Both the position numbers and the translations under genes were made by a program. Positions 10,037 to 29,303 of a stretch of DNA of 57,911 nt are shown here, piece after piece. The notes under the pieces are model-generated. The model did not search any database. It was given only the letters and a program-made list of their open reading frames with translations, and was not told the origin of the DNA. Positions within the stretch are counted from its first letter, which is position 1, and each line of letters opens with the position of its first letter. Source of the DNA: Vicinamibacteria bacterium (GTDB lineage: Bacteria > Acidobacteriota > Vicinamibacteria > Vicinamibacterales > CAVVIG01); assembly GCA_041485905.1 (NCBI GenBank), contig JBGPKK010000006.1, positions 1 through 57,911 of the forward strand. The letters are read 5' to 3'.

Positions 10037-10945
10037 CTACGCCTTGTCGAGAATCATCGCGATCCAGAGGAGCGGCAGGTAAATGATGGACGCGAAGAAG
10101 AGCGCCCGTGCGGAACTGTCGCCTCGCGCGCGCGCGAAGCGGGCGGACAGGTAGAGAAGCGCGCCGCCAAGCACGAGTGCGATCGCGAAATACGCCGGCC
10201 CGCTCACACCGATCGCGGTTGGCACCAGGCTGATCGGCACGAGCGAGGCGGCGTAGGTGACCGCCTGCCGGCCCGTGCTTCGTCCATCGGGTTCAATGAC
10301 CGGCAGCATCGGAAAGCCCGCCTTCCCGTAGTCATCTCGGTACAGCCAGGCGATGGCCATGAAGTGCGGGATCTGCCACAGGAACACGATCGCGAAGAGC
10401 GCCGCCCCTCCCATCGACAACGATCCGTGGGCGGCGGTCCATCCGATCAGCGGCGGCAGGGCGCCCGGCACCGCGCCGACCAGCGTGGCGAACGAGGAGC
10501 GGCGCTTCAACGGCGTGTAGACGATGAGATAGATGACGAGCGTCGCGGCGGCGAGCGAGGCGGCGAGCAGGTTGGCGCGCGCCGCCAGGAGGGCGAGGCC
10601 GCCGGCCGCCAGCGCGAGTCCGAAGATGCGTGCATCGGCTGGCGGGACGCGGCCGTCCGGCAGCGGACGCATCCGGGTGCGCCGCATGAGCGCATCGGTG
10701 TCGCGCTCGTACACCTGATTCAGCACGGCCGCGCCGCCGGCCACCAAGGCGGTGCCCGTCACCGCCTGCGCCATCGGCCAGAGTTGCGGCCCGCCCGGCG
10801 CGCCGAGGTAATAACCGGCCGCGCTCGTCGCGACGACGAGAAAAGTCAGGCGCGGTTTGGTGAGCGCAAAGTAGTCGGACACGCGGGTCGACCCACGGCC
10901 GACCTCGAGGGGGACGGATACGGCATCCAGGGGCGCGTCTTTCAC
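10037..10945 (-). CDS. ctaB: Protoheme IX farnesyltransferase (heme O synthase)
   Basis: LTKPR, NQVYERDTDALMRRTRMRPLP, YTPLKR, WQIPHF, DDYGKAGFPMLP. Confidence 0.95.
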   Translation of the reverse strand: MKDAPLDAVSVPLEVGRGSTRVSDYFALTKPRLTFLVVATSAAGYYLGAPGGPQLWPMAQAVTGTALVAGGAAVLNQVYERDTDALMRRTRMRPLPDGRVPPADARIFGLALAAGGLALLAARANLLAASLAAATLVIYLIVYTPLKRRSSFATLVGAVPGALPPLIGWTAAHGSLSMGGAALFAIVFLWQIPHFMAIAWLYRDDYGKAGFPMLPVIEPDGRSTGRQAVTYAASLVPISLVPTAIGVSGPAYFAIALVLGGALLYLSARFARARGDSSARALFFASIIYLPLLWIAMILDKA

Positions 10946-12144
10946 GTACGGGCCCCGCCGTGTGTCACCGCAGAGGACGCGGAGGTCGCAGAGCTCAGTC
11001 CCACATGTCTCGGCGTCCTCAGCGGTTGCGGCACGCGCTCGTCAGCGAACTTCCCGCGCCAGCTTCTGAGCGTCAACACGAGCGAGGTCGCGAGCACCAG
11101 CGCACCGCAGACGACGTGCACGCTGTTGATCCAGATGTCGCGCTGGCTCAGGACCGTCAGCGCTCCAAGTGTCACCTGCACGCCGACGAGCGCGAGGAGC
11201 AGCGCCGCCGGTCGGGTGAGCTCCCGGCGTTCGCCATGGCGACGCCAGATGTACGCGCACGTCGCGAGCACGCCAAGCACGACGACAAGCGCCCCGACGC
11301 GGTGCGAGAAATGAATCGCGATCTTCGGATCCCAATGCGTCGGCAGCAGATGGCCGAACATCAACGGAAAATCCGGTATCGCGAGACCCGCGCCCGTATG
11401 CCTCATCGTCGCGCCCAGCAGAATCTGGATGTAGATCAGACCGGTGGCCGTGGTGGCGGCTTTTCGAAGCGTTTCATCATTCTTATGGCTCGCGGGGCCC
11501 CACCCCCGCTCGCTGAAGACCTCGCGCTCGAGCGTAGTCTCTCGCGCTCGGGTAAGGGGCACCCGGCCGCCATCCCGCTCGCTGAAGACGCTTTCCAATG
11601 CTCGTGGGGCCCCACCCCCACTCGCCTCGCTCGCGCTTCGGCGCTCGCGAGAGCTGCGGGCGCTGCGCTCGAGCGTAGTCTCTCGCGCTCGGCTGGACCC
11701 ATAGCCGTCAATCCACCCGGGCGACGTGACGAGCGCGATCGAGACGACGAGGCAGAAGAAGATTTCCGCAAGCCCCGCATGTGCGGTGGAAATCGCCGCC
11801 GGCAGGAAAAACAGGACCGTCAGCCCACCCAACACGCCTTGTGCGATGACGGCGCCAAGCGCGGCGACGCCGAGCCACTTCATCCAGCGGCGCGGCTCCT
11901 GCAGCCACAGCCACACGGCGAGAATGATTGAGAGAAATCCGACGGTGCTGGCAATCAGTCGATGGCCGTGCTCGTAGAGGATGCCTCCGACCCACTTCGA
12001 GGGAGGGAACGTGAACATGCTCCAGCCGTACGTCGTCGGCCAGTCAGGAACGGCGAGACCCGAGGCGGTGCTCGTGACGAGGCTGCCCGCGAGCACGAGG
12101 AGCACCGTGCAGCCGGCGAGGAACTGCGCGAACCTGTGGAGCAT
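10942..12144 (-). CDS. ctaA: Heme A synthase (COX15/CtaA) carrying a repeat-derived in-frame insertion of about 70 aa
   Basis: GLAVPDWP...YEHGHR...AH and GLAIPDFP...HFSHR...VH duplicated halves. Confidence 0.9.
   Translation of the reverse strand: MLHRFAQFLAGCTVLLVLAGSLVTSTASGLAVPDWPTTYGWSMFTFPPSKWVGGILYEHGHRLIASTVGFLSIILAVWLWLQEPRRWMKWLGVAALGAVIAQGVLGGLTVLFFLPAAISTAHAGLAEIFFCLVVSIALVTSPGWIDGYGSSRARETTLERSARSSRERRSASEASGGGAPRALESVFSERDGGRVPLTRARETTLEREVFSERGWGPASHKNDETLRKAATTATGLIYIQILLGATMRHTGAGLAIPDFPLMFGHLLPTHWDPKIAIHFSHRVGALVVVLGVLATCAYIWRRHGERRELTRPAALLLALVGVQVTLGALTVLSQRDIWINSVHVVCGALVLATSLVLTLRSWRGKFADERVPQPLRTPRHVGLSSATSASSAVTHGGART
11478..11697. repeat. Composite palindromic repeat element inserted in frame in ctaA
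   Basis: Contains two GGGGCCCCACCCCC motifs and two copies of GCGCTCGAGCGTAGTCTCTCGCGCTCGG; near-identical units occur intergenically at 13116-13248. Confidence 0.85.
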
Positions 12145-12149
12145 TTGTG

Positions 12150-12250
12150 TCTGGTGGGTCAGGCGAGTCTGGCAGGTCCGGCAGGTTGGTCGGGTAGCTG
12201 AGATAAGCGACCCACCTGGCCTACCCGACCCGCCTGGCCTACCCGACCTC
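12150..12250. repeat. Inverted array of degenerate 9-mers
   Basis: GGCAGGTCC-like units followed by reverse-complement GACCCACCT/GGCCTACCC units; same style as 28135-28215. Confidence 0.6.
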
Positions 12251-12260
12251 TGGCCGGCGT

Positions 12261-13058
12261 TCAGTCCGTCGCCGACGCGCCGGCTGGTGCTTTGAACGTG
12301 AAATTGACTTCCTTGGTCTCTTTCTGGCCGAGCGTCACGCTCTGCGTCATGGCGCCGAGCTTTTCATGCCACGCCTCGATCGTGTAGGTGCCGGGCGGCA
12401 ACGACTTCAGCTCGAACTTGCCGTCCTTGTCGGTGGTCGCGAAATACGGATGGTCGAGCACGCCGATGTACGCGTTCATCCAGCCGTGCACGTCGCACTT
12501 GAAAGGCACCATGACCTCCTTCGCGGTGAAGGTGTGGGTCGTCTTCATTCCCTGGATCGGCTGCCCGGTGTTGAATTCCTGATTGTTCTTGGGGAGCGCA
12601 TGGATGTTGTGCAGCGTCGGATCGCTGTTGAGGATCTCGAGCGGCTGGCCGACGCGGATGCCGAACACGTGCGGATGATAGCGGCAGTCGTGCTGATCGA
12701 TCTTTGCCGGCTCCGTCGGCGTGTCGTAGATGTAGTTGCCGAGACCGTCCTTCACGTACACGAACACATTCGCCAGATGTCCGTCGCTGACGGAGTAGGT
12801 TGCCTGGAACTGCGGGCTCGTGTTGGCCTTGACGCAGACCGGATCCGCGTTCATTCTGATCGGCTCGTTCTTCGGCGCGGTACCCTCGAGCATCGCCATG
12901 CCCTTGACGTCGCCCGCAGTGGATGTGTCGACCTTGGAGGCCGCGGGGGTCCCCGCCGGTACCGAGGGTTCCGCTGATTTGCTGCCGCCCCCGCATGCGA
13001 CGAGCGACGCGGCGAGCGCCAGACCGAACGTGGTGACCCAGATGCTGCTTGGACGCAT
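12261..13058 (-). CDS. Lipoprotein with cupredoxin-like and carboxypeptidase-regulatory-like domains
   Basis: Lipobox LVAC; DQHDCRYHPH, HNIH, KCDVHGWM; C-terminal TDKDGKF..LPPGTYTIEAWHE. Confidence 0.75.
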   Translation of the reverse strand: MRPSSIWVTTFGLALAASLVACGGGSKSAEPSVPAGTPAASKVDTSTAGDVKGMAMLEGTAPKNEPIRMNADPVCVKANTSPQFQATYSVSDGHLANVFVYVKDGLGNYIYDTPTEPAKIDQHDCRYHPHVFGIRVGQPLEILNSDPTLHNIHALPKNNQEFNTGQPIQGMKTTHTFTAKEVMVPFKCDVHGWMNAYIGVLDHPYFATTDKDGKFELKSLPPGTYTIEAWHEKLGAMTQSVTLGQKETKEVNFTFKAPAGASATD

Positions 13059-13115
13059 TGAATTCTCCTCAAGAAGAGCGCAAAAAACGCAAATTAGACC
13101 GACCTTTAATCATAC

Positions 13116-13248
13116 CTTATGCGCGTGGGGCCCCACCCCCACGCGCTAAAGACCTCGCGCTCGAGCGTAGACTCTCGCGCTCGGGTGAATGCTCCGGCCC
13201 CACCTCCGCGTAAAGACCTCGCGCTCGAGCGTAGACTCTCGCGCTCGG
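13116..13248. repeat. Intergenic copy of the ctaA-type palindromic element, with two identical 36-bp units
   Basis: AAGACCTCGCGCTCGAGCGTAGACTCTCGCGCTCGG at 13149-13184 and 13213-13248, preceded by hairpin GCGCGTGGGG-CCCCAC-CCCCACGCGC. Confidence 0.85.
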
Positions 13249-14667
13249 CTACTGTCCGGCTTCGCGCAGTTTTCGCTCGACGCGATCTTCGATCCAGTGC
13301 GAATCCCACCATTCGACCGGATTCACCGGATGACCGTTGACGAGCATCGTGAAGTGCAGGTGATCCCCGCCCGCCAGTCCCGTCATGCCGCTTCGCCCGA
13401 TCGTCTGGCCTTTGGTGACCGTGTCGCCGACTTTCACCTCGAACGCCGACAGATGGCCGTACAGCGACTGCACGCCCATGCCGTGATCGAGGATCACGCA
13501 GTTGCCGTAGATGCCGAGCCAGCTCGCGTGCAGGACCGTGCCGTTATTGGCCGCGACGACCGCCACGTTGCTGGTGACGGCGAGATCGAAGCCGAGATGG
13601 ACCTGCCGATCGACTTCCCTGCCCTTGTAGAAATAGGTCCGCTGATCGGCAAACGACGCTTCGACCTGCGAGTTGCCGAGCTGCACGAACGGGCCGTTCC
13701 ACAACCGCATCGGTGAGCTCTTCGCTGCGAGGGCCGAGATTTCGTCGGTGTTGATCTTGCGCAGCTCGCCGTTGATCTTGAGAAACGCCGGCAGCATGTC
13801 GTCGCCGGCGGCCGGCGGCGTCGTCTTCAGCTCCGGCGAATGCGCCAGGATCTCCGGCACCACGCGGTTCAGGAACTTGTCATCGAGCTCGATGTGGCTC
13901 TTCTTGAACGGCTTCTCGAACACCTTGTCGACGAAGGTGGCCCGTGTCTCGTTACCGGCCTCGTCACGGGCGAAGGCGACGATGGGCGCGTTCAGTTTTT
14001 GATCGTAGAGGAGCGCGAAGAATGCGACCTTGAGCCCGGCATCAATGCTGCCAGGGCCGCCAGGGCCGCCGCCTGCCGCACCCACTTCAGCACGCGCGAA
14101 GCCCGGATATTCGACGTCTCCGACACGCACGCCCGATTGCACGTCGGTCGGCGTCGCTCGGTACACGACCATTTCCGATCCGCCGTGGTTGACGTAGTGA
14201 TGCGTGGACAGTGCGGCGATGCGCGGAGGTTCGAGACGGACCTGGATGTCCCTGCTGGTTGTCGCGGACACCGTCCGCAGTCCCAGAAACGACGGGCGCG
14301 CCGCCGTGACGACGATGCGCGCGGCGCCCGCCTGCAGTTGCGGAACGCTCTGCTTGCCGAACGGCCGCGACACCCGCAGGCGGTTCGGCTCGGTCGGGGC
14401 GACGGTCCCTGCCTGGCCGCGATCGAGCCTGGAGATGTCGAAGAGCGGCGTCGTCCGGCCGTTTTGTTCGAGCGTGATGGTCAGGGCCGTGAATCGCGCG
14501 TTGGGCGCTTCGGCCGTGACCTCCAGCGTTCCGCTCTGACCGACGACGCGTTCGGGTTTGTCGATCGTCAGACGTGGAGGTGCGGCGCGGCCGGCGACGA
14601 CGTACGCGCCACAGAAGCTCAGGAGCGCGAGGACGACGAGCGCAGCGAGCCAACGCATGGACTCCAT
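13249..14667 (-). CDS. M23 family metallopeptidase
   Basis: HLGFD (HxxxD), YGNCVILDHG, LYGHLS, HLHF (HxH); N-terminal anchor. Confidence 0.92.
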   Translation of the reverse strand: MESMRWLAALVVLALLSFCGAYVVAGRAAPPRLTIDKPERVVGQSGTLEVTAEAPNARFTALTITLEQNGRTTPLFDISRLDRGQAGTVAPTEPNRLRVSRPFGKQSVPQLQAGAARIVVTAARPSFLGLRTVSATTSRDIQVRLEPPRIAALSTHHYVNHGGSEMVVYRATPTDVQSGVRVGDVEYPGFARAEVGAAGGGPGGPGSIDAGLKVAFFALLYDQKLNAPIVAFARDEAGNETRATFVDKVFEKPFKKSHIELDDKFLNRVVPEILAHSPELKTTPPAAGDDMLPAFLKINGELRKINTDEISALAAKSSPMRLWNGPFVQLGNSQVEASFADQRTYFYKGREVDRQVHLGFDLAVTSNVAVVAANNGTVLHASWLGIYGNCVILDHGMGVQSLYGHLSAFEVKVGDTVTKGQTIGRSGMTGLAGGDHLHFTMLVNGHPVNPVEWWDSHWIEDRVERKLREAGQ

Positions 14668-28217: not shown

Positions 28218-29303
28218 GTGATCCGCCCCGTCAAGACGATCGACGCGCACGCGGCCGGCGAGCCTCTCCGCCTGATCGTCGACGGGTGTCCAGCCCCGCA
28301 GGGGCGCACGATGCTCGAGAAGCGCGAGTGGATGAGGAGGAAACAGGATCACCTCCGCCGCGCGTTGATGCTCGAACCGCGTGGCCACGCCGATATGTCC
28401 GGCGCGCTTCTCACCGAACCGGTCTCGCCCGGCTCCCACGTCGGCGTGCTGTTCATGCACAACGACGGCTACAGCACCATGTGCGGCCACGCCGTCATCG
28501 CAGTGGCCACGATCGCGCTCGAGCGCGGTCTACTCGTGCCCGGCGGCGACGGGCGAACGATCGTCTTCGACTCGCCGGCGGGTACCGTTCGCGCCACAGC
28601 GAGTCTAGCGCCTGCGGCCACGCCTCGCGCGCGTGAGCGCACAGCTCGCGAGGCGTCGGCGAGCGGGGGTGGGGCCCCGCGAGAAGGTCATGAATGCCGT
28701 GACACCAAAGTCGAGCGCGTCGCGTTCGAGAACGTCCCCTCCTTTGTGCTCCATCCCGGACTCGTCGTGAAGCTCGGGAGCCGGCAGATTCGCGCTGACA
28801 TCGCATTCGGCGGAGCCTTTTACGCCATCGTCGACAGCGAGGCCGTCGGTCTGCCCATCGATGCGGCGCACGTTCCAGAGCTCCGCCGCGTTGGGATGGA
28901 CATCATGCGCGCGATCGAAACCGCGCACCAGATCACGCACCCGCTCGAGCCGGAGCTGGGTGGGATTGACGGCACGATCTTTACGGGGCCGCCCGACGAT
29001 TCGCGGGCCGATTTGAGAAACGTGACGATCTTCGCCGGCGGCCAGGTCGACCGCTCACCCTGCGGCACCGGCACGGCGGCGGTGATGGCGGTGATCGACG
29101 CCATGGGATTGCTCGGCGACGACAGATCCTTCGTGCACGAGAGCGTCGTCGGCACGCTGTTCAACGGCAGGGTGACTGGACGGACCCAGGTGGGCGAGTA
29201 TCACGCGATCGTGGCGGAGATAGACGGATCGGCGTGGATCACCGGGGAGCACACGTTTCTGATTGACGAAGACGATCCGCTCAGGGAGGGATTTCACCTA
29301 TAG
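28218..29303 (+). CDS. Proline racemase / hydroxyproline epimerase family protein with in-frame repeat insertion
   Basis: DAHAAGEPLR, LEPRGH, TMCGH, DRSPCGTG (Cys/Cys catalytic pair). Confidence 0.92.
   Translation: MIRPVKTIDAHAAGEPLRLIVDGCPAPQGRTMLEKREWMRRKQDHLRRALMLEPRGHADMSGALLTEPVSPGSHVGVLFMHNDGYSTMCGHAVIAVATIALERGLLVPGGDGRTIVFDSPAGTVRATASLAPAATPRARERTAREASASGGGAPREGHECRDTKVERVAFENVPSFVLHPGLVVKLGSRQIRADIAFGGAFYAIVDSEAVGLPIDAAHVPELRRVGMDIMRAIETAHQITHPLEPELGGIDGTIFTGPPDDSRADLRNVTIFAGGQVDRSPCGTGTAAVMAVIDAMGLLGDDRSFVHESVVGTLFNGRVTGRTQVGEYHAIVAEIDGSAWITGEHTFLIDEDDPLREGFHL
28608..28696. repeat. ctaA-type palindromic element inserted in frame in the proline racemase gene
   Basis: 28659-28683 GCGAGCGGGGGTGGGGCCCCGCGAG is the exact reverse complement of 11489-11513. 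Confidence 0.8.

Follow-up and report, generated by a model that had tools for sequence, protein, structure and literature searches.

The heme A synthase gene ctaA of a Vicinamibacteria bacterium (assembly GCA_041485905.1, contig JBGPKK010000006.1) is longer than those of its relatives, and the question is what the additional DNA is and how the enzyme came to carry it. We analysed a stretch of 57,911 nucleotides, called the window here, in which ctaA occupies 10942..12144 on the minus strand as an open reading frame (ORF) of 400 codons including the insert. Assignment of the product to the COX15/CtaA family is secure: in a Pfam search PF02628 matched it in three stretches (E 8.8e-38), covering both four-helix halves with the conserved histidines and glutamate present, and the heme A synthase structure PDB 6a2j matches both halves as well. 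Residues E58, H59, H61, R62, H122, H249, H278, H281 and H343 are invariant in an alignment of 41 sequences. The source genome (G000) has ctaA at a single locus. The next gene in the ORF list, 10037..10945 on the minus strand, is a putative ctaB, named protoheme IX farnesyltransferase-like from reading its sequence, and its GTG start overlaps the ctaA stop by 4 nt (10942-10945). Since the two overlap, ctaA must be translated to its end, and this favours an open ctaA frame.

A preliminary description of this DNA had proposed an in-frame repeat insertion of about 70 amino acids between the two halves of CtaA, and such an insertion is indeed present. In an empty-site alignment with a same-genus genome (G001) and six other relatives, the inserted segment (SRARETT...GPASHKN) spans 11479..11694 on the minus strand. 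It measures 216 nt, or 72 stop-free codons with a net charge of +4, and its limits are uncertain by a few bases that the alignment with the same-genus empty site leaves unassignable. A protein alignment and the helices of an AF2 model place it between the two four-helix halves, that is, between TM4 and TM5. The segment is absent from ctaA in 18 of 19 relatives, the same-genus genome included, and in the nineteenth (G021) another repeat occupies this CtaA linker. It is likewise missing from the best 120 database homologues, which are 298-383 aa long versus 400 aa here. Orthologues thus have empty sites. We saw neither a target-site duplication nor a terminal inverted repeat at the ctaA junctions, including in the comparison with the G001 empty site. 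Nor, in a comparison with MITEs, do terminal inverted repeats join the ends of the repeat. The G001 empty site contains 13 nt identical to an arm of the repeat's HP2' hairpin (CCGAGCGCGAGAG), which could be a footprint, or could point to homology-guided copying as opposed to clean insertion.

Could the segment be an assembly artefact, or ctaA a decaying pseudogene? The source is a metagenome-assembled genome (MAG) in 305 contigs, and repeats break contigs; arrays of this one lie at the ends of contigs C12, C212, C219 and C274. The left junction of the insert is bridged in a single sequencing run, X1, possibly that of the source sample. Against an artefact, contigs bridge the right junction without differences in X1, X4 and X5 and with one difference in X6, so that three further samples support it; the assemblies of four sequencing runs yield exact contigs that tile the insert, and no contig of these runs makes a joint that skips it. 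A pseudogene is at odds with the intact 400-codon frame, the conserved catalytic residues and the standing of this gene as the sole ctaA of its genome. We regard both ideas as largely refuted and scarcely credible. The objections foreseen in the preliminary description did not materialise, since orthologues lack the segment, assembled contigs support its junctions and, as shown below, other copies exist.

The insert is itself a composite of hairpin modules. The modules as first reported were written on the strand antisense to ctaA; read in the sense of the gene, all on the minus strand, the segment begins with the 5' copy of a hairpin, HP2' (CCGAGCGCGAGAGACTACGCTCGAGCGC..., 11661..11692), identified by module matches and an HP2' alignment. 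A long linker (11626..11660) follows, in which folding reveals a further GC hairpin whose loop is of TTCG type, and then a second type of hairpin, HP1' (11600..11625), with a GGGG-GUGGGG-CCCC core read as ASGGGAPR. Next come a degenerate partial unit, consisting of a decayed HP1' and a short linker, and a tail-like spacer (together 11552..11599); this part was recognised by a direct repeat, 11565-11589 versus 11496-11520, with 84% identity. The 3' copy of HP2' (11520..11551) is read as RARETTLERE, and the 3' copy of HP1' (11488..11513), assigned like the first by module matches and alignment, is read in a different frame as ERGWGPA. The segment closes with an A-rich tail (CATAAGAAT in sense, 11479..11487), whose only open frame reads H-K-N. 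Reading of the GGGGCCCC module in two frames of one protein, as ASGGGAPR and ERGWGPA, had been noted in the preliminary description and is correct. The linker type of 11626..11660 recurs elsewhere in the source genome, at C212:1588-1701. In the HP2' alignment, the two ctaA copies alone carry A at column 14. In the likely sequence of events, a copy of the repeat was inserted into the cytoplasmic linker between TM4 and TM5 once the lineage had diverged from its nearest sampled congener. The private base shared by the two HP2' copies suggests that the insert was then remodelled in place.

Comparison of copies defines the repeat unit. In the sense direction it consists of a short 5' arm, HP2', a variable linker, the GC-rich HP1' and an A-rich tail of 8-12 nt that is rich in stop codons. 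HP2' has the form CCGAG-xy-CGAGAGUCUACGCUCGAG-y'x'-CGAGG, with two tandem G.A/A.G internal loops whose pairs are conserved at 3-30/4-29 and 9-24/10-23; HP1' is built as stem, GGGG, loop GUGGGG, CCCC and stem. Units also form direct arrays of two to six, spaced 54-84 nt apart. The stems of HP2' covary: pairing is found in 88.9% of alignment cells versus 76.6% in shuffles, and the covariation score is 0.288 versus 0.109, a value that none of 500 shuffles attained. In 31 of 37 units the sense strand folds into the more stable structure. The form that is recognised may be the single-stranded sense strand, as RNA or as ssDNA. Counts of G.U versus A.C, tried as a strand test, gave no discrimination (HP2' 17 vs 20; HP1' 51 vs 68).

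The same family is present elsewhere in the window. GCGCTCGAGCGTAGWCTCTCGCGCTCGG occurs four times (11524, 11665, 13157 and 13221, all on the plus strand) versus 0.00 expected from shuffles, and GGGGCCCCACCCCC five times at up to two mismatches versus 0.63 expected. A repeat search and the ORF list place an intergenic two-unit array at 13107..13254 on the minus strand, starting directly after the stop of an M23-peptidase-like gene (13249-14667) and about 50 nt upstream of the ATG of the next gene (13058). Intergenic recurrence of the modules, as originally claimed, is thus confirmed: 13147-13184 and 13211-13248 are identical 38-nt units, one base off the ctaA copies (GTAGACT vs GTAGTCT). A second in-frame copy, of HP1' type with a different 5' module, lies on the plus strand at approximately 28595..28695 (HP1 core 28665-28678). 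Its host is a proline-racemase-family gene (28218-29303), in whose product the Pro_racemase profile is split into two stretches, the best resuming at residue 157. An Rfam search of window positions 10500-14000, with E up to 1, gave no family match on the repeat; two weak mir-3622 matches at 12151-12245 are due to chance and fall on another repeat.

Beyond the window, an nhmmer search of the 5.08-Mb source genome found 43 units at 31 loci, bearing out the claim of a dispersed repeat. An 18-mer of HP2 was detected in 10 of 41 relatives; G001 has 34 copies, G002 of the same genus has none, and G020 has 25 copies of the repeat. A 17-mer of the repeat was found in none of 150 other Acidobacteriota, and the more than 110 database stretches that carry the repeat come almost entirely from Acidobacteriota/Vicinamibacterales MAGs. 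The distribution is patchy within one family, and individual sites are polymorphic. At the start of trpE the repeat is present in G000 only among the genomes compared. The start of a macB-like gene is filled in G000 and G001 and empty in G002, G007, G010, G015 and G003. Conversely, a DnaE2 site (ALVN|VDL) holds the repeat in L084 and L085 but not in G000. Among the papers listed in a literature search for repeats of Acidobacteria or Vicinamibacteria, none describes this family, with the proviso that supplementary tables of PMC3733652 and PMC11893778 might include related elements. We consider it likely that the ctaA segment is a composite, some two and a half units long, of this lineage-restricted, dispersed, non-coding Vicinamibacterales repeat, carried as a neutral translated passenger.

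The position of copies relative to genes is far from random. Loci in sense to their neighbouring genes outnumber those in antisense 19 to 2 in G000 and 77 to 8 in other genomes, about 90% being sense. An ATG-initiated long ORF begins within 45 nt downstream of 26 of 62 HP1' sites, 18 of them at 11-17 nt; the antisense direction gives 2 of 62, and random positions give 155 of 2000. In other genomes, the first ATG is 13-17 nt away at 63 of 157 terminal sites. At trpE and the macB-like gene, this repeat-adjacent ATG is the native one. The tail ends at an ATGA in 22 of 34 copies versus 139 of 454 controls. As a strict insertion target ATGA would fit trpE, the macB-like gene, ctaA and uvrC; the DnaE2 site, where it is absent, does not fit, and as a general rule the target was rejected. 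The hairpin-to-ATG distance varies over 11-17 nt. At least two frames are closed by the tail in 32 of 54 start-adjacent copies versus 274 of 1917 controls. The idea that the element stays open in several frames was partly upheld: the 75-nt body is stop-free in all three frames in 21 of 54 start-adjacent copies, but high G+C makes stops rare anyway, so open frames are only partly the element's own property. Altogether, 51 of 219 HP1' sites are start-adjacent, and in 11 of these 51 the upstream ORF reads through the repeat to the TGA of ATGA, as at aroDE-trpE. Up to a quarter of HP1' sites lie inside ORFs, and 95 of 219 are neither start-adjacent nor within an ORF by crude ORF criteria; these class counts are approximate because genes were called by a GC3 heuristic, not a gene finder.

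Such features invite the view that the repeat is a host RNA device, not selfish DNA: the hairpins of this intercistronic module would stabilise or process operon mRNA, its stop-rich A tail would pass ribosomes on to the following start codon, and copies in coding regions, that in ctaA among them, would be accidental. The sense bias and the tight spacing between hairpin and ATG agree with this, as do the better folding of the sense strand, with its tandem G.A pairs, the read-through to ATGA and the closing of frames by the tail. However, orthologous junctions function without the repeat in most relatives, with presence patchy even within the genus; the sites inside ORFs, and two copies that lie antisense inside imuB, also count against it. 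Moreover, survivorship of start-adjacent insertions would give the same orientation bias without any RNA function. We consider an RNA device unlikely.

Insertion into ctaA is not an isolated case, and the claim that the repeat writes peptide into enzymes holds at the level of sequence. In-frame copies with Pfam domains on both sides, or with a domain split by the repeat, were found in DnaE2, UvrC, an amidase, MrfA helicase, ThiS-ThiG, proline racemase, Lhr, a kinase, ArsA, MetRS, MoaA and others. Such flanked or split domains were seen in 8 G000 proteins and in 15 of 20 proteins tested from other genomes, and the copies together use all three sense frames. The imuB-dnaE2 cassette is a hot spot, accounting for 33 of 174 HP2 cores in other genomes and 9 of 43 units in G000. 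When the 72-aa insert was compared with longer proteins, there was one match, DnaE2-like, among 543 candidates; the weakness of this search reflects the harsh E-values that short peptides receive in a database of 5.8 billion proteins.

What does the insert do to CtaA? The AF2 model with the insert keeps the eight-helix core (mean pLDDT 76.4). A helix is predicted fairly confidently for residues 149-175, with successive 10-residue blocks across 151-180 at pLDDT 79, 90 and 69, and residues 181-199 fall below 50. The insert is probably translated, and the cell most likely produces a CtaA with a 72-residue loop rich in Arg, Ser and Glu, part helical and part disordered, as a functionless passenger. 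It would persist because its length is a multiple of three, it has no stop in frame, and the length of this linker was already variable. The 72 residues might instead be an adaptive addition made from repeat DNA, such as a cytoplasmic loop serving regulation or the binding of a partner, and both the predicted helix and the recurrent use of this linker as an insertion point, with another repeat in G021, lend some colour to that idea. Yet among the genomes sampled the insert occurs in a single lineage, its peptide is simply what results from translating a repeat found in unrelated proteins and in different frames, and its composition is of low complexity with a stretch of very low pLDDT; an adaptive origin is very improbable.

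If the ctaA segment is a passenger copy of a dispersed repeat, what moves it? One candidate is a Y1 (HUH) transposase acting in trans, of the RAYT, TIRYT or TnpA kind, which would make the repeat REP-type or IS200/IS605-derived and would move it as ssDNA. The two conserved imperfect hairpins, with invariant loops, covarying stems and strand specificity, speak for such an enzyme, and the enrichment of ATGA at the tail end would correspond, on the opposite strand, to a TCAT target lying 5' of the HP1 end. G000 does encode three PF01797 (Y1) genes, and a link between REPs and RAYTs is described in PMC3733652. However, these genes are flanked by other repeats and not by HP1/HP2, PF01797 was not found in G001, G020 and G013, three of the five element-bearing genomes searched, and no TnpB was found. 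Within the repeat, GTAG is confined to the antisense strand of the HP2 loop and is not seen at the 5' foot of a palindrome, arrays are direct and not inverted dimers, the distance from tail to ATG is not constant, and ATGA is missing from the DnaE2 site. Movement by a Y1 enzyme is in our view rather improbable. The search for an Ssn-type GIY-YIG nuclease in G000 was negative, with PF01541 matching UvrC only. A candidate autonomous copy in L053, with HP1 and HP2 1.76 kb apart and a gene between them, proved to be two separate elements with an opposite-strand oxidase gene in between. Enzyme-driven mobility may well operate, but as no mobilising gene is tied to the repeat, it is from presence/absence patterns alone that the repeat looks mobile.

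A more speculative proposal, and a long shot, is that the repeat spreads without a resident HUH/Y1 enzyme, TnpB or Ssn-type nuclease, and that its concentration in the imuA-imuB-dnaE2 mutasome cassette, about one-fifth of units across genomes, is mechanistic, through error-prone gap-filling synthesis, and not mere tolerance. Copies would then be written by template switching at hairpins or by a hairpin-binding factor. If true, the repeat would represent a class of mobile DNA of its own, new and "translation-transparent", whose stop-rich tail and start-codon docking would allow it to live in operons and enzymes.

The preliminary description regarded the element as a possible undescribed system. 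This part did not stand, since palindromic repeats read in frame within genes are already on record for Rickettsia RPEs (PMC10969869) and for REPs, which occur inside coding regions, those of DnaE2 and uvr among them (PMC3733652; Di Nocera et al. 2013), and docking at start codons is documented for MIRUs (PMC12548453). With MIRUs the Vicinamibacterales repeat shares short units, direct tandem arrays in operon spacers (here at 54-84 nt spacing, co-oriented with flanking genes), the gene-sense direction and start-codon docking, with some copies in which a frame ends in the TGA of an ATGA overlapping the start (PMC12548453). It differs in having two strong GC hairpins and many copies deep inside genes, and upstream-gene read-through occurs in only the 11 of 51 start-adjacent copies. 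MIRUs, compared by description only, come from another phylum and presumably have another sequence; because the phylum differs, we do not file the repeat as a MIRU member. Like RPEs, it is palindromic, non-autonomous and found in frame in unrelated housekeeping genes of known proteins, at apparently fold-compatible sites (PMC10969869), as illustrated by the CtaA core retained in the AF2 model. Unlike RPEs, which are about 150 bp long with one long palindrome, its unit is made of two separate hairpins and a tail, and it combines a strong start-codon link with tandem arrays in a free-living soil/sediment acidobacterium. Since host and architecture differ, it is an analogue and not a member of the RPEs, which were likewise compared by description. 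The GC-rich hairpins, the preference for spacers between co-directional genes and the minority of copies within genes, notably DNA repair genes and dnaE2, recall REPs (PMC3733652); unlike REPs, it has no GTAG or CGTC tag at the palindrome foot, forms direct arrays instead of inverted dimers and flanks no RAYT/TIRYT gene. With the NTS/SRM repeats of Ssn GIY-YIG enzymes (Chenal et al. 2025, PMC11893778), it has in common an abundant hairpin with oriented non-palindromic flanks, but the NTS consensus is CGTC-tagged and unrelated, and UvrC is the only GIY-YIG match in G000. By analogy, then, the family is a known kind of element, MIRU-like across the genome in its sense orientation in operons, its direct arrays and its tail at or overlapping ATG(A), and RPE-like in its in-frame housekeeping copies.

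This one acidobacterial repeat family thus combines the behaviour of RPEs, as in-frame passengers of enzymes, with that of MIRUs, as elements docking at start codons. For annotation, the consequences of such repeats are inflated and split gene calls, broken MAG contigs and spurious "novel domains". The copies also point to places where an enzyme naturally tolerates insertion, the linker between the halves of CtaA being one. Recurrent invasion of imuB/dnaE2 and other repair genes echoes that reported for unrelated REPs (PMC3733652), and makes the family a concrete case in which to ask what draws hairpin repeats to repair genes.

The open reading frame (ORF) at 10942..12144 on the minus strand encodes a 400-residue protein that contains the peptide quoted in the preliminary description, and the product is a COX15/CtaA heme A synthase (PF02628, E 8.8e-38; match to PDB 6a2j). 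We aligned the sense strand to ctaA of G001, a relative of the same genus, and of six more relatives. This placed the extra DNA at 11479-11694 (sense on the minus strand), a segment of 216 nt, or 72 codons, with a net charge of +4. The segment is not a general feature of the orthologues: in a protein alignment with the genome of the window (G000), the linker is short in 18 of 19 relatives, and the best 120 homologues among 5.8 billion proteins have 298-383 residues versus 400 in this CtaA. In the 19th relative, G021 (locus L015), the same linker between TM4 and TM5 is occupied by a long insert that consists of another repeat (LILRQAQDERRVEGP units), so this linker is a recurrent permissive site. 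That insert has about four LSKRLILRQAQDERRVEGP units, with VVSLSNHEP... before them. The G000 insert is very unlikely to be an assembly error. Independent assemblies of four sediment metagenome runs gave contigs that tile the insert exactly, and none of them joins across an empty ctaA site. Runs X1, X4 and X5 bridge the right junction without any difference and X6 does so with one; the left junction is bridged in X1 only, a run that may be the source sample.

The insert is built from a repeat with many further copies, and a search with nhmmer found 43 units at 31 loci in G000 (5.08 Mb, 305 contigs, 64.7% G+C). Within the window, a 28-nt module occurs four times (11524, 11665, 13157 and 13221; 0.00 expected), and the GGGGCCCC module five times at up to two mismatches (0.63 expected). 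The modules had been said to recur between genes, and they do, in an array at 13107-13254 with two identical 38-nt stretches and a period of 64; this is not a multiple of three, unlike the periods of arrays inside ORFs (72, 84, 81 and 54 nt). As originally written, the modules represent the antisense strand of the unit. On the sense strand, the unit runs from a 5′ arm (GCAGCCTTCACC-like) through the hairpin HP2′ (consensus CCGAGGCCGAGAGTCTACGCTCGAGGCCGAGG), a short or long linker and the hairpin HP1′ (stem, GGGG, GUGGGG, CCCC, stem) to an A-rich tail (51% A). HP1′ is also joined to other 5′ modules, which brings the number of HP1 sites in G000 to 62. Two stem positions of HP2′ show clean compensatory change (GC 37 versus CG 23; CG 36 versus GC 24), and 88.9% of cells pair versus 76.6% in shuffles. 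Covariation scores 0.288 versus 0.109; 0 of 500 shuffles reach this value, and sliding the partners makes the signal collapse. Conserved tandem G.A/A.G pairs form two 2x2 internal loops on the sense strand; on the opposite strand they would become C.T mismatches. For 31 of 37 units the sense strand folds more stably, with a mean difference of 3.9 kcal/mol. Counts of G.U versus A.C did not tell the strands apart. No Rfam family matched the repeat. Directly upstream of the ctaA start, at 12151-12245, lies another palindromic repeat of GGTCGGGTAGGCCAGGTGGGTCG-like units, whose two weak mir-3622 matches in Rfam are due to chance; related PDLPDPP peptides are found upstream of ctaA in L020.

In sense order, the ctaA insert opens with HP2′ and a long linker that contains an extra hairpin. 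HP1′ (ASGGGAPR) comes next, followed by a tail-like spacer and a decayed partial unit. A short linker then connects the second HP2′ to the second HP1′ (ERGWGPA), and the tail CATAAGAAT, translated as H-K-N, completes the insert. One module is indeed read in two frames of the same protein, as had been noted. Both HP2′ copies share a private base (sense GAGAGACTACG) that is present in 0 of 70 other distinct aligned HP2′ sequences and absent from all other G000 copies; the two units are therefore related through duplication or conversion in place. The "empty" ctaA site of G001 (L002) reads CCGAGCGCGAGAG and then CTCGCG, 13 nt identical to the HP2′ arm, with the loop missing; possible origins are a footprint, homology-guided copying and chance in arginine/alanine codons.

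Other genes are interrupted in frame as well. Pfam domains flank the insert, or a Pfam match is split by it, in the DnaE2, UvrC, AmiC-like amidase, MrfA-type helicase, PSD-family, ThiS-ThiG and proline racemase proteins of G000. The last, identified by Pfam, is the second in-frame insertion of the window: an HP1′-type element with a different 5′ module at about 28595-28695 in a plus-strand proline-racemase-family gene (28218-29303), with the Pfam profile resuming at residue 157. Among 20 spanning ORFs tested in other genomes, DnaE2 accounts for six. Further interrupted proteins are Lhr, MrfA (two), a Ser/Thr kinase, ArsA, MetRS, MoaA, a pseudouridine synthase and an FAD oxidoreductase; in MnmA and PurL the element sits at the N-terminal edge, and three ORFs have no Pfam match. 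By sequence look-up, shared words turned up in an ArsA-like gene from a different genome, consistent with the ArsA insertion (L050). Across copies all three sense frames are used, so that HP2′ is read as RARESTLERE, AERESLRSSAR or PSARVYARARG and HP1′ as ASGGGAPR, RVGVGP or ERGWGPA. The repeat has a hot spot in the imuA-imuB-dnaE2 mutasome cassette. Its imuB-dnaE2 part holds 9 of the 43 G000 units (contig C28:22157-27579; L183, L177 and L187) and, in other genomes, 33 of 174 HP2 cores and 11 of 110 loci (L038, L065, L084, L085, L095, L100, L109, L110, L118, L132 and L133). G000 imuB alone has four insertion loci, two of them antisense, and its frame is still open. Two G000 contigs, C12 (1-121) and C212 (7590-7869), end inside one array and probably join; joined, they would put five or more 72-nt units, arrayed in frame, into a radical-SAM methylthiotransferase-like gene.

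The repeat is oriented with the genes: 19 of the G000 loci are sense and 2 antisense, 2 others have ORFs on both strands, 1 is without a nearby coding-like ORF and 4 lie too close to the end of a contig. The corresponding counts for other genomes (110 loci) are 77, 8, 14, 15 and 13. The ATG of a long coding-like ORF lies within 45 nt downstream of 26 of the 62 G000 HP1′ sites, 18 of them at 11-17 nt, versus 2 of 62 when the sites are read antisense and 155 of 2000 random positions; in other genomes the first ATG is at 13-17 nt in 63 of 157 terminal HP1′ sites. Empty sites at trpE and at a macB-like gene show that this ATG is native. In most relatives with a readable region upstream of trpE, aroE ends at the start or a few codons inside, and in G000 the element is directly 5′ of ATGA, with the AroD-AroE frame running through it to the TGA of ATGA; the macB-like gene starts with ATGAAC with and without the element. 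The tail closes at least two reading frames in 32 of 54 start-adjacent copies versus 274 of 1917 control start regions. Approximate counts, with genes called by a GC3 heuristic, divide 219 HP1′ sites with enough flank into 23 internal to arrays, 51 start-adjacent (11 reading through to ATGA), 50 inside long sense ORFs and 95 that fit neither of the last two classes.

The HP2 18-mer (up to one mismatch) is present in 10 of 41 relatives, with 34 copies in G001, 0 in G002 of the same genus, 25 in G020, 12 in G007 and 11 in G015; a 17-mer occurs in none of 150 further Acidobacteriota with a completeness of at least 90%. Occupied sites differ between genomes. This patchiness has the pattern of an element gained and lost. 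Matching public contigs are titled as Vicinamibacterales/Acidobacteriota MAGs. Two element-bearing loci (L086 and L094) come from a MAG labelled Betaproteobacteria, and could be mis-binned Vicinamibacterales contigs or horizontal transfer. A search for a mobiliser in G000 found three PF01797 (Y1) genes, flanked by other repeats; PF01797 had no match in the element-bearing G001, G020 and G013. One Y1 gene, RAYT/TIRYT-like (C13:46540-47260), has direct copies of a different repeat on both sides, with GGACCCTATTGGGTCCGGCG units and an CGGACCTCATAAGGTCCG hairpin before them. No TnpB was found, and the only GIY-YIG match in G000 is UvrC. The ctaA insert has neither terminal inverted repeats nor a target duplication. 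ATGA is enriched at the tail end (22 of 34 copies versus 139 of 454 controls); as a general insertion target it was rejected, given a DnaE2 site without ATGA.

In CtaA, an AF2 model from a 41-sequence alignment retains the eight-helix core (mean pLDDT 76.4), with residues 149-175 helical and residues 181-199 below 50. In the structure of Bacillus subtilis CtaA, the linker between the two halves is cytoplasmic. Here the insert follows TM4, and from the positive-inside rule, given the positively charged TM2-TM3 loop (RRWMK) and the +4 charge of the insert, we infer that it faces the cytoplasm. Most likely, CtaA tolerates the insert as a translated loop, since the conserved histidines and glutamate are intact, G000 has only one ctaA, and its stop overlaps the start of ctaB. 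Relatives L003, L007, L008, L015, L019 and L004 have CtaA C-terminal extensions with VRLKPDTT- or VRLQPD-like ends, as if a further hairpin repeat, located where the gene ends, were translated.

The ctaA feature is thus real, and the observation is confirmed. No description of this repeat family was found in the literature searched, and it fails the defining tests of REP/RAYT, NTS/Ssn and MITE. According to published accounts, MIRUs are mobile and insert at start codons, where an overlap of 4 nt keeps coupling intact (PMC12548453), many Rickettsia genes carry RPEs in frame (PMC10969869), and REPs are found inside genes, notably repair genes and DnaE2 (PMC3733652). As far as these accounts go, the family resembles MIRUs at start codons, RPEs in frame, and REPs in repair genes and DnaE2. 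The original reading of a mobile repeat writing peptide into enzymes was right in substance, but the system is not of an undescribed kind; by analogy with MIRUs, RPEs and intragenic REPs, this family is best regarded as a further member of a kind of element already known.
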